NCBI RefSeq assembly: GCF_024502345.1
Contig: NZ_JALDNN010000001.1
DNA from: Escherichia coli
Lineage (GTDB): Bacteria > Pseudomonadota > Gammaproteobacteria > Enterobacterales > Enterobacteriaceae
DNA: 64,000 nucleotides
Reading direction: 5' to 3' (one strand)
Shown here: piece by piece, positions 45,958 through 48,142 of the stretch
How the letters are laid out: the number at the start of each line of letters is the position of its first letter
Numbering within the stretch: the first letter of the stretch is position 1
Position numbers and translations under genes: made by a program
The notes under the pieces: model-generated
The model's input: the letters and a program-made list of their open reading frames with translations, nothing else
Database searches by the model: none
What the model was told of the DNA's origin: nothing

Positions 45958-48142
45958 ATGATTACTCGTATTCCTCGTAGTTCTTTCTCTGCAAATATTA
46001 ATAATACAGCCCAGACAAATGAACACCAAACCCTGAGTGAATTGTTTTATAAAGAACTTGAGGATAAATTTTCTGGCAAGGAGCTGGCGACGCCTCTATT
46101 AAAAAGCTTCTCAGAGAACTGTAGACAAAATGGTCGTCATATCTTTAGCAACAAGGATTTTGTCATTAAATTTTCCACGTCCGTCTTACAAGCTGATAAG
46201 AAAGAAATTACGATAATTAATAAAAACGAAAACACGACACTCACTCAAACCATTGCTCCAATATTTGAAGAATACCTAATGGAAATTTTACCTCAACGCT
46301 CAGACACTCTTGATAAACAAGAATTAAACCTAAAATCAGATAGAAAAGAAAAAGAATTCCCAAGAATTAAACTTAATGGTCAATGTTATTTTCCGGGGCG
46401 ACCCCAAAACCGTATAGTATGCCGACACATTGCTGCACAATATATTAATGATATTTATCAGAATGTTGATTACAAACCCCATCAAGATGATTATTCTTCA
46501 GCTGAAAAATTTCTCACTCACTTCAACAAAAAATGCAAAAACCAGACTTTGGCGTTGATTTCCAGCCGTCCTGAGGGGCGTTGCGTTGCTGCCTGCGGTG
46601 ATTTCGGGCTAGTTATGAAAGCATATTTTGACAAGATGGAATCAAATGGCATCAGTGTTATGGCAGCCATATTACTGGTGGATAACCATGCTTTGACGGT
46701 CCGGCTAAGAATAAAGAACACAACTGAAGGATGTACCCATTACGTGGTTTCGGTTTATGATCCTAATGTAACTAACGATAAAATAAGAATCATGAGCGAA
46801 AGCAAAGAGGATATTAAACACTATTCTCTGATGGATTTTATGAATGTAGATTATAGCCTCCTGAAATGGTCAAATGATCATGTTATTAACCAATCTGTTG
46901 CAATAATTCCAGCACTTCCGAAAGAACAGCTATTGATATTAAAAGGATCTGTGGATGAAATAACCCCTCCATTATCACCAGCAACGATGAATTTGCTAAT
47001 GGCAATTGGTCAGAATCACCAACTTACGCAACTGATGATTCAGCTCCAGAAAATGCCAGAACTACATAGAACAGAAATGTTGACTGCCTATAATAGTATT
47101 AACCTCCCCGGTTTATATTTGGCTATAAATTATGGCAATGCGGATATCGTTGAGACTATTTTCAATTCATTGTCAGAAACAGGATATGAAGGGTTACTCT
47201 CGAAAAAAATCTCATGCATATTCTGGAGGCAAAAGATAAAAATGGTTTTTCTTGATTATTTTTAGCGATATCACGTAAGGATAAAAATGTTGTAACCTCG
47301 ATTCTGAACGCCTTACCTAAACTGGCCGCAACACATCATTTAGATAACGAACAAGTGTATAAATTCCTGAGTGCCAAAAATAGAACGTCCAGCCATGTTT
47401 TATACCATGTTATGGCGAATGGTGATGCCGACATGCTGAAAATTGTTTTGAACGCGTTACCTTTGTTAATTCGCACATGTCATTTGACTAAAGAACAGGT
47501 ACTCGATCTCCTGAAGGCAAAGGATTTTTATGGTTGCCCAGGACTATACCTGGCGATGCAAAATGGACATAGCGATATCGTGAAAGTTATTCTCGAAGCA
47601 TTGCCCTGTCTGGCCCAGGAAATTAACATTTCAGCTTCCGATATTGTAGATCTTCTGACCGCTAAAAGTCTTGCGCGCGACACGGGTTTGTTTATGGCCA
47701 TGCAGCGCGGACATATGAACGTTATTAATACTATTTTTAACGCATTACCCACTCTTTTTAATACGTTTAAATTCGATAAAAAAATATGAAGCCCCTCCTC
47801 CTGGCAAATAATTCTAATGAATATCCCGGTTTGTTTTCAGCGATACAGCATAAACAACAAAACGTTGTAGAGACGGTTTATCTTGCTTTATCTGACCATG
47901 CACGCCTGTTTGGATTTACTGCTGAAGATATTATGGATTTTTGGCAACACAAAGCGCCACAAAAATACTCTGCCTCTGAGTTGGCTTTTGAATTGGGTCA
48001 CCGGGTTATTGCTGAATTAATCCTTAATACATTAAATAAGATGGCTGAAAGCTTTGGCTTTACGGATAACCCTCGATACATTGCGGAGAAAAATTATATG
48101 GAAGCTTTACTCAAAAAAGCATCTCCCCATACCGTACGCTAA
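45958..48142 (+). pseudogene. arpA: Ankyrin-repeat protein gene arpA, disrupted (three ORFs in three frames: 45958-47265, 47355-47789, 47786-48142)
   Basis: Ankyrin-like repeats continue across the ORF boundaries (…GLYLAINYGNADIVETIFNSL… / …GLYLAMQNGHSDIVKVILEALP… / …GLFMAMQRGHMNVINTIFNALP…); frame changes at A7 runs 47203-47209 and 47778-47784; in-frame TGA at 47253-47255; span 2185 bp versus 2187 bp for a 728-codon gene. Confidence 0.7.

Follow-up and report, generated by a model that had tools for sequence, protein, structure and literature searches.

Genes that meet tail to tail on opposite strands and share their last bases have been catalogued in bacterial genomes, and 58 (PMC2174442) or 75 (PMC4161906) such convergent overlapping pairs were counted in Escherichia coli K-12. 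Four tetramers, namely CTAA, TTAA, CTAG and TTAG, lie behind a spike of 4-nt convergent overlaps, and phase (123:132) is the commonest among those of at least 5 nt (PMC2174442). A model of stop loss and 3' extension has been described for the origin of overlaps (PMC4161906). A predicted intrinsic terminator was reported for one gene in 19 of the 58 pairs and for both genes in 2 (PMC2174442). For K-12, Rho termination regions have been listed from DirectRNA-seq in the presence and absence of bicyclomycin (Adams et al. 2021, PMC7815308, supplementary file 2), and bidirectional terminators have been described for convergent pairs (Ju et al. 2019, as summarised in bioRxiv 10.1101/2022.10.23.513370). 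Here, three convergent junctions, aceK/arpA, purD/zraR and yjbD/rluF, were compared with these systems. They lie in a stretch of 64,000 nt from E. coli contig NZ_JALDNN010000001.1, which is called the window below. With a probability of roughly 0.8, all three are by-products of where stop codons fall and not a device. In this explanation the 32-bp overlap of aceK and arpA would be the scar of an island insertion, purD/zraR belongs to the CTAA class, yjbD/rluF is the empty site of a dispersed repeat, and the transcripts would end inside the facing gene.

The original prediction placed a 32-bp overlap of the arpA and aceK 3' ends at 48111-48142, a 4-bp overlap of purD and zraR at 63390-63393 and abutting ends of yjbD and rluF at 37219/37220, and direct reading of the stops bore out all three. 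The arpA-frame open reading frame (ORF) stops with TAA at 48140-48142 and aceK with TGA, read as tca, at 48111-48113; the common bases of purD and zraR are CTAA, and the gap between yjbD and rluF is 0. The Prokaryotic Genome Annotation Pipeline (PGAP) annotation contains the 32-bp espL4(arpA)/aceK overlap in FDAARGOS_943 and CFSAN004176, and the 4-bp purD/zraR overlap and the yjbD/rluF abutment in FDAARGOS_943. In MG1655, aceK (4218596-4220332) and arpA (4220301-4222487) likewise overlap by 32 bp, and the zraR end (4204645) and the purD start (4204642) by 4 bp. It had been conceded that corrected start or stop assignments might remove the overlaps. They do not, as the stops are unambiguous, RefSeq gives identical ends and ambiguity of start codons does not touch stop codons, so that re-annotation cannot abolish the overlaps. 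Eight convergent pairs of coding sequences were found in the window after transfer of annotation, with gaps of 41, 154, 43, 46, 0, 89, -32 and -4 nt. When the total of K-12 convergent pairs is taken as 600-870, which is our own estimate, about one in ten overlaps, and two overlaps among eight pairs then have P ~0.2, a value that rests on this estimated total. The overlap count is no greater than chance would yield. For the 32-bp overlap the phase is (123:132), which is the most frequent one in its length class. All three are ordinary tail-to-tail junctions that are already annotated, including in the K-12 reference, and hence already known.

The evidence on origin is richest for aceK/arpA, where the following features are needed (window positions).

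45619-45649, plus strand: 3' end of iclR with a weak terminator-like hairpin, then ACTTTTTC; the left junction of the island follows directly
45650-48128, no strand: AT-rich arpA island, about 2.48 kb, with a GC content of 0.28-0.46 against about 0.5-0.6 in the flanks; right edge within 5 nt either way
45958-48142, plus strand: arpA (espL4 in PGAP), a pseudogene with a ShET2 N-terminal domain and ankyrin repeats, 2185 nt long (intact allele 2187 nt)
47203-47209, plus strand: first -1 frameshift in arpA, A7 against A8 in the intact allele
47778-47784, plus strand: second -1 frameshift in arpA, A7 against A8 in the intact allele, common to FDAARGOS_943
48111-49847, minus strand: aceK, 578 aa, ending in RYGEMLF before the stop, with the last 5-6 codons and TGA encoded by island DNA
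48111-48142, both strands: the 32-bp aceK/arpA overlap, containing the junction of island and ancestral DNA at about 48126-48136

Genomes that lack the island allowed the ancestral state and the junction position to be read directly. Of 5,425 genomes that matched a 1.1-kb query spanning the junction, about 1,340 align only from 48133 or 48136 on, a point inside the overlap. The island is found neither in the arpA-less E. coli nor in E. albertii. In the arpA-less genomes OV24 and CUVET17-1418, aceK is 1725 nt long and 16 nt separate its TAA from the stop of iclR; the gene ends with TTT AGC GTT CGA TTC GTA TAA, followed by ATCAGAGGCGAAAAAG and antisense iclR, and encodes a protein of 574 aa with the terminus RFSVRFV. 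In E. albertii the end is TTT AGC GTG CGG TTT GTA TAA, followed by ATCAGTGGCGAAAAG, and AceK again has 574 aa. The window gene, identical in K-12, ends with TTT AGC GTA CGG TAT GGG GAG ATG CTT TTT TGA. The aceK and iclR stops are 15-16 nt apart in both arpA-less E. coli and E. albertii, and the E. albertii junction is orthologous to the arpA-less E. coli form, spacer included. Citrobacter AceK ends in VRFA or VRFT. As the aceK codons TTT AGC are conserved in E. albertii and Citrobacter, this sequence is older than the island, and the arpA stop TAA is antisense to precisely these Phe-Ser codons. Related genomes (arpA-less E. coli and E. albertii) thus have an aceK that ends earlier without overlap, and the TGA in the window is the first in-frame stop past the point of divergence (TAT GGG GAG ATG CTT TTT TGA). 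The orthology with E. albertii, together with the inability of a deletion to recreate 15-18 nt that are missing from arpA-positive genomes, shows that the arpA-less arrangement is ancestral.

The 32-bp overlap thus appears to be a historical by-product of an arpA island inserted into the end of aceK. Ancestrally, aceK would have faced iclR with the stops 15-16 nt apart. An AT-rich island of about 2.5 kb would then have been inserted once, replacing about 15-18 nt that held the last two codons and the stop of aceK. From then on aceK would read 15-21 nt into the island to the first in-frame TGA, making AceK 4 aa longer, and arpA would read 8-15 nt out of the island into old aceK sequence up to the TAA; the overlap would be the sum of both read-throughs. 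A stretch of 100 nt across the junction is present in 3,974 of 5,426 genomes and at least 99% identical in 3,928 of them, with MG1655 at 100%; the carriers include MG1655, O157:H7 and B1-type genomes with a shorter arpA allele. A junction this uniform fits a single insertion event. If sequence is entered at a random position and in a random frame, the median distance to the first stop is 39 nt in the antisense of the island and 60 nt in the antisense of aceK, and against these medians the observed 32-bp overlap is if anything short. The stop-loss and 3'-extension model (PMC4161906) resembles this locus in that aceK lost its ancestral TAA and uses a new TGA 4 codons later; it differs in that the stop was removed by a foreign island of 2.5 kb rather than by a point mutation, and in that both genes extend across the junction.

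Neither the length nor the sequence of the AceK tail behind RQRF.VR is constrained among 80 loci of Enterobacterales, both varying freely, and the new tail is therefore probably neutral. The aceK-iclR spacing at these loci ranges from -47 and -4 to +2685 nt. Across the order aceK and iclR often overlap each other, by 4 nt in Cedecea, Buttiauxella, Shimwellia and Mangrovibacter and by 47 nt in Enterobacter quasihormaechei and Pseudescherichia vulneris; other Enterobacterales genera have a spacer enlarged to 0.4-2.7 kb, which points to repeated insertion at the same spot.

The original prediction had further held that the choice of the arpA 3' frame matters for interpreting the pseudogene, and it does. 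An alignment to the intact allele of 2187 nt shows that the final ORF piece (47786-48142) keeps the ancestral frame and that the TAA at 48140-48142 is the ancestral stop. The window arpA differs from this allele by two single-A deletions, in the A8 runs at 47203 and 47778, and by 14 substitutions; FDAARGOS_943 has the second A deletion only. The ORF that starts with the arpA ATG at 45958 ends at 47265, about 0.9 kb short of the overlap. Because of the frameshifts, only aceK is translated across the overlap in this strain. Many genomes, for example O104:H4, have a different and shorter arpA allele that encodes 524 aa and bears the annotation of a toxin of the ShET2/EspL2 family. Its homology to the window begins only at 47709, and yet it agrees fully in the 3' end and in the 32-bp overlap, so that arpA is a mosaic upstream of a common 3' segment. 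In a paralogue search aimed at a possible truncation of the ArpA C-terminus, plasmid ShET2/EspL2 homologues had about 26-31% identity to ArpA, with an alignment that reaches query residue 223/248 at most. The sister assembly of the closest genome has a plasmid with ShET2/EspL2 genes (NZ_CP065614.1).

The purD/zraR junction is of a simpler kind.

62104-63393, plus strand: purD, stop TAA at 63391-63393
63390-64000, minus strand: 3' part of zraR, stop TAG read as cta at 63390-63392, running off the window end without an internal stop
63390-63393, both strands: CTAA common to both stops, the 4-nt overlap

CTAA is one of the four tetramers of the 4-nt stop/stop class, and the pair is in phase (123:213), exactly as described (PMC2174442); the identical overlap is found in MG1655, and no difference from the class was seen. 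Both genes are conserved, with annotation in 5,418 genomes (query coverage of 80% or more) and in K-12. An interruption of zraR, suspected from an ORF of 194 aa, was ruled out, since the translation is open to the window edge. An imperfect hairpin with the stops at its centre forms when the junction is folded (z = -1.69, matched by 7 of 200 shuffles).

At yjbD/rluF the two genes only touch.

36947-37219, plus strand: yjbD (DUF3811), stop TGA at 37217-37219
37220-38092, minus strand: rluF, stop TAA read as tta at 37220-37222
37212-37239, plus strand: palindrome GGCGCT-GATT-AGCGCC spanning both stops, then CCTTCTTTTTAC; a site like an intrinsic terminator for yjbD in the last codons of rluF

The abutment is also found in SE15 (B2), O55:H7 and other strains, where the junction reads GGCGCTGATTA followed by G or A and then CGCC. 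K-12 and roughly a third of genomes have instead an insert of 132 bp between the stops (MG1655 4231227-4231358), which belongs to a dispersed repeat family; the median number of places that it occupies in an E. coli genome is about 10. The abutment is thus the common E. coli state, the empty site of this repeat. The 132-bp element is bounded by imperfect inverted repeats (AACGCCTGAGA / TCTGAGGCGTT), has a GC-rich hairpin at its centre and includes a Term-seq 3' end of K-12, 4231270(-); the window is without this insert. The stop pair is TAA..TCA in K-12 and TGA TTA at empty sites, and these are reverse complements of each other, which may reflect either that the palindrome loop underwent a small inversion or that a TAATC target was duplicated. 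The palindrome has a GC-rich stem of 6-7 bp at 37212-37227, with the stops in the loop region, and the centroid fold retains it on both strands. In SE15 a synonymous change breaks one stem pair. GGCGCTGATTAGCGCC followed by CCTTCTTTTT, a GC-rich hairpin with a T-tract, makes an intrinsic terminator of yjbD plausible.

Since there is no intergenic space at the junctions, each transcript must end inside the facing gene, and to this extent the original prediction stands. Its step from there to transcriptional interference or shared bidirectional termination is not warranted, because terminators can lie in the coding sequence of the partner (PMC2174442). In overlapping pairs the published predicted terminators must in fact lie there, so that lack of intergenic room does not force interference. 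When the Rho termination regions of Adams et al. 2021 (PMC7815308) were placed with MG1655 gene coordinates, they were found in 4 of the 6 directions (K-12 positions and strands).

4220399, plus strand: antisense to arpA, 67 nt past the aceK stop, Rho score 3.0
4204911, plus strand: antisense to purD, 266 nt past the zraR stop, Rho score 4.3
4231569, plus strand: antisense to yjbD, 343 nt past the rluF stop, Rho score 3.1
4231091, minus strand: antisense to rluF, 268 nt past the yjbD stop, Rho score 4.3

The P values of these scores are 1e-5 to 3e-13 (PMC7815308). A rise of read-through under Rho inhibition is thus recorded in published K-12 data, and the aceK/arpA junction sequence is identical to that of K-12. 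The regions just past convergent stops resemble the suppression of read-through and antisense transcription by Rho described in that study, which was carried out in K-12 with its 132-bp rluF/yjbD spacer; the window is without the spacer. The C/G ratio of the RNA downstream of the stops is 1.42 after aceK, 1.0-1.55 after zraR, 1.05-2.0 after purD and 1.26-1.29 after rluF, a C excess in untranslated RNA that suits Rho but says little, since the antisense of coding DNA is generally C-rich. If the K-12 data carry over to this strain, termination inside the facing gene would depend mainly on Rho acting on untranslated antisense RNA with C>G, and for yjbD probably also on the hairpin and U-tract. 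In K-12, a small RNA, AceK-int, is annotated inside aceK (4218879-4218963) and has a strong Term-seq 3' end at 4218963.

Several points weigh against this overall explanation. The right boundary of the island could be placed no better than to about 5 nt on either side, as microhomology of the GTAT type and a possible 3-nt indel blur it, and E. albertii was the only close outgroup sampled for the aceK-iclR junction, with E. fergusonii and the cryptic clades outside the sample. The termination data come from another strain, K-12 in lysogeny broth, which also differs by the 132-bp yjbD/rluF insert, and no K-12 Rho region is listed for purD into zraR or for arpA into aceK (PMC7815308, supplementary file 2). 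In terminator and promoter pattern scans of the three junctions and the iclR end, sites were no more numerous than in shuffled sequence and only the yjbD hairpin was sensibly placed; one site of the yjbD type is also expected in shuffled sequence (mean 1.0). Folds of both strands at each junction were not unusually stable (z +0.38 to -1.69).

Shared bidirectional termination, the alternative closest to the original prediction, would have a hairpin at the meeting point pause RNA polymerase from both sides, with head-on collisions releasing both transcripts (Ju et al. 2019; Wang et al. 2022). According to bioRxiv 10.1101/2022.10.23.513370, such termination is established for hundreds of E. coli convergent pairs. 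The convergent geometry is shared by the window, and a hairpin lies at the meeting point of yjbD/rluF, where the GC-rich palindrome is centred on both stops; at purD/zraR the imperfect hairpin is weak, and aceK/arpA has none (z = +0.19 and -0.62), an inverted-repeat search of the junctions having returned arms of 6 nt only, apart from the yjbD/rluF palindrome. The same preprint describes the class as Rho-independent, whereas K-12 read-through past all three junctions is sensitive to bicyclomycin and hence Rho-dependent, as published for the regions beyond aceK, zraR, rluF and yjbD. The broken stem pair in SE15 and the pseudogene state of arpA in this window count further against it. As an account of the junctions together it is unlikely; a collision-based bidirectional terminator is possible for yjbD/rluF and, more weakly, for purD/zraR.

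Coupling of the excludon type, in which transcription over the 3' end of the partner would tune that partner, for example arpA acting on the dosage-critical aceK, is very improbable. K-12 transcripts do run into the partner genes, and overlapping transcription is a recognised regulatory mode (PMC7154746), but arpA is wholly missing from about a quarter of E. coli genomes and from E. albertii and is frameshifted in the window and FDAARGOS_943, the yjbD/rluF spacing differs by 132 bp between lineages, and the insertion junction fully explains the aceK/arpA overlap. It is scarcely credible that the 32-bp overlap is the older state and that the arpA-less state arose by secondary deletion in B2/F. 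A presence/absence polymorphism alone gives no direction of change, and most E. coli genomes carry arpA. Against this stand the 15-18 nt or so of arpA-less E. coli (the last two aceK codons, TAA and a 9-nt spacer, ending in TTCGTATAAATCAGAGGC in aceK orientation), which occur in none of the arpA-positive genomes, are orthologous to E. albertii and could not be recreated by a deletion. In addition, aceK faces iclR without arpA in Citrobacter and other genera, and the low GC content of the island marks a foreign origin. An island insertion into the aceK end, with ordinary termination inside the facing gene, remains the preferred explanation.

The aceK/arpA junction coincides with a primer site of the Clermont quadruplex phylotyping scheme (primer table from PMC4322292).

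48122-48141, plus strand: exact match to primer ArpA1.r (TCTCCCCATACCGTACGCTA), wholly inside the overlap and across the island junction
48502-48521, minus strand: exact match to primer AceK.f

Together, AceK.f and ArpA1.r give the 400-bp 'arpA' amplicon, almost all of which is aceK sequence. The marker serves as a presence/absence test, and both of its primers match the window exactly; the literature examined is silent on the gene overlap and the changed AceK C-terminus. Phylogroup E was rejected for the window, as both group-E arpA primers have a 3'-terminal mismatch. Another Clermont marker, yjaA, is missing from 54764-54877, between the yjaB end at 54763 and the start of the 5S rRNA gene at 54878, where K-12 has yjaA. 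By these two markers the locus is arpA-positive and yjaA-negative.

The window lies in the reverse of the K-12 orientation; its genes are, in order, lysC, yjbD, rluF, pepE, yjbB, metH, iclR, arpA, aceK, aceA, aceB, metA, yjaB, an rRNA operon, purH, purD and zraR, and the window is an E. coli/Shigella-type chromosome segment. No genes were mapped to 1-6481 and 15283-17313 when annotated genes were transferred. FDAARGOS_943 is the closest genome over the arpA-aceK region with 99.8% identity. Collinearity with it was rejected, because a sorbose phosphotransferase system (PTS) operon of about 6 kb lies between rluF and pepE there and is found neither in the window (38093-38303) nor in K-12; despite the identity at arpA-aceK, the window is not simply FDAARGOS_943. 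The ubiC-malM interval of that genome holds a SopA-family pseudogene interrupted by ISSso6. In the window, lamB (18477-20594) is interrupted at about 19300-20100, leaving ORFs 18477-19223 and 20028-20594, by an insertion of about 0.78 kb that encodes IS1 InsA (19396-19671) and InsB (19590-20093); the disrupted gene suggests a lineage like Shigella or enteroinvasive E. coli (EIEC). An Rfam scan of the whole window gave no family at any of the three junctions. The window contains four naRNA4 elements (RF02564) of the repetitive extragenic palindromic (REP) type, at 49927-50004, 33071-33141, 18394-18464 and 23400-23470, one of them in the aceA-aceK intergenic region.

For biology at large these junctions carry little weight, as convergent overlaps are catalogued in bacterial genomes. 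What is added is the origin of the 32-bp overlap as an insertion scar, an AceK C-terminus that is specific to phylogroups (574 or 578 aa) and the coincidence with the phylotyping primer: aceK/arpA would be a clean, datable case of an overlap created by insertion of foreign DNA, and the widely used Clermont 'arpA' PCR is anchored on the island junction and amplifies mostly aceK. Missing intergenic space is no evidence for interference, given that termination may take place inside the facing gene. A more speculative extension, which we regard as decidedly improbable, is that the arpA island acts as a 2.5-kb insulator that keeps aceBAK read-through off the antisense strand of iclR. Were this so, read-through in the lineages without arpA (E. 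coli of the B2/F type, E. albertii and many Enterobacterales) would enter the antisense of iclR, the gene of the operon's own repressor, from stops separated by 16 nt or, in other genera, from gene ends with an overlap of 4 to 47 nt. When the glyoxylate shunt is induced, convergent transcription could then reduce iclR expression, a positive feedback. Where arpA is present, Rho would absorb the aceBAK read-through within the island, and the glyoxylate-shunt switch would be wired differently between phylogroups.

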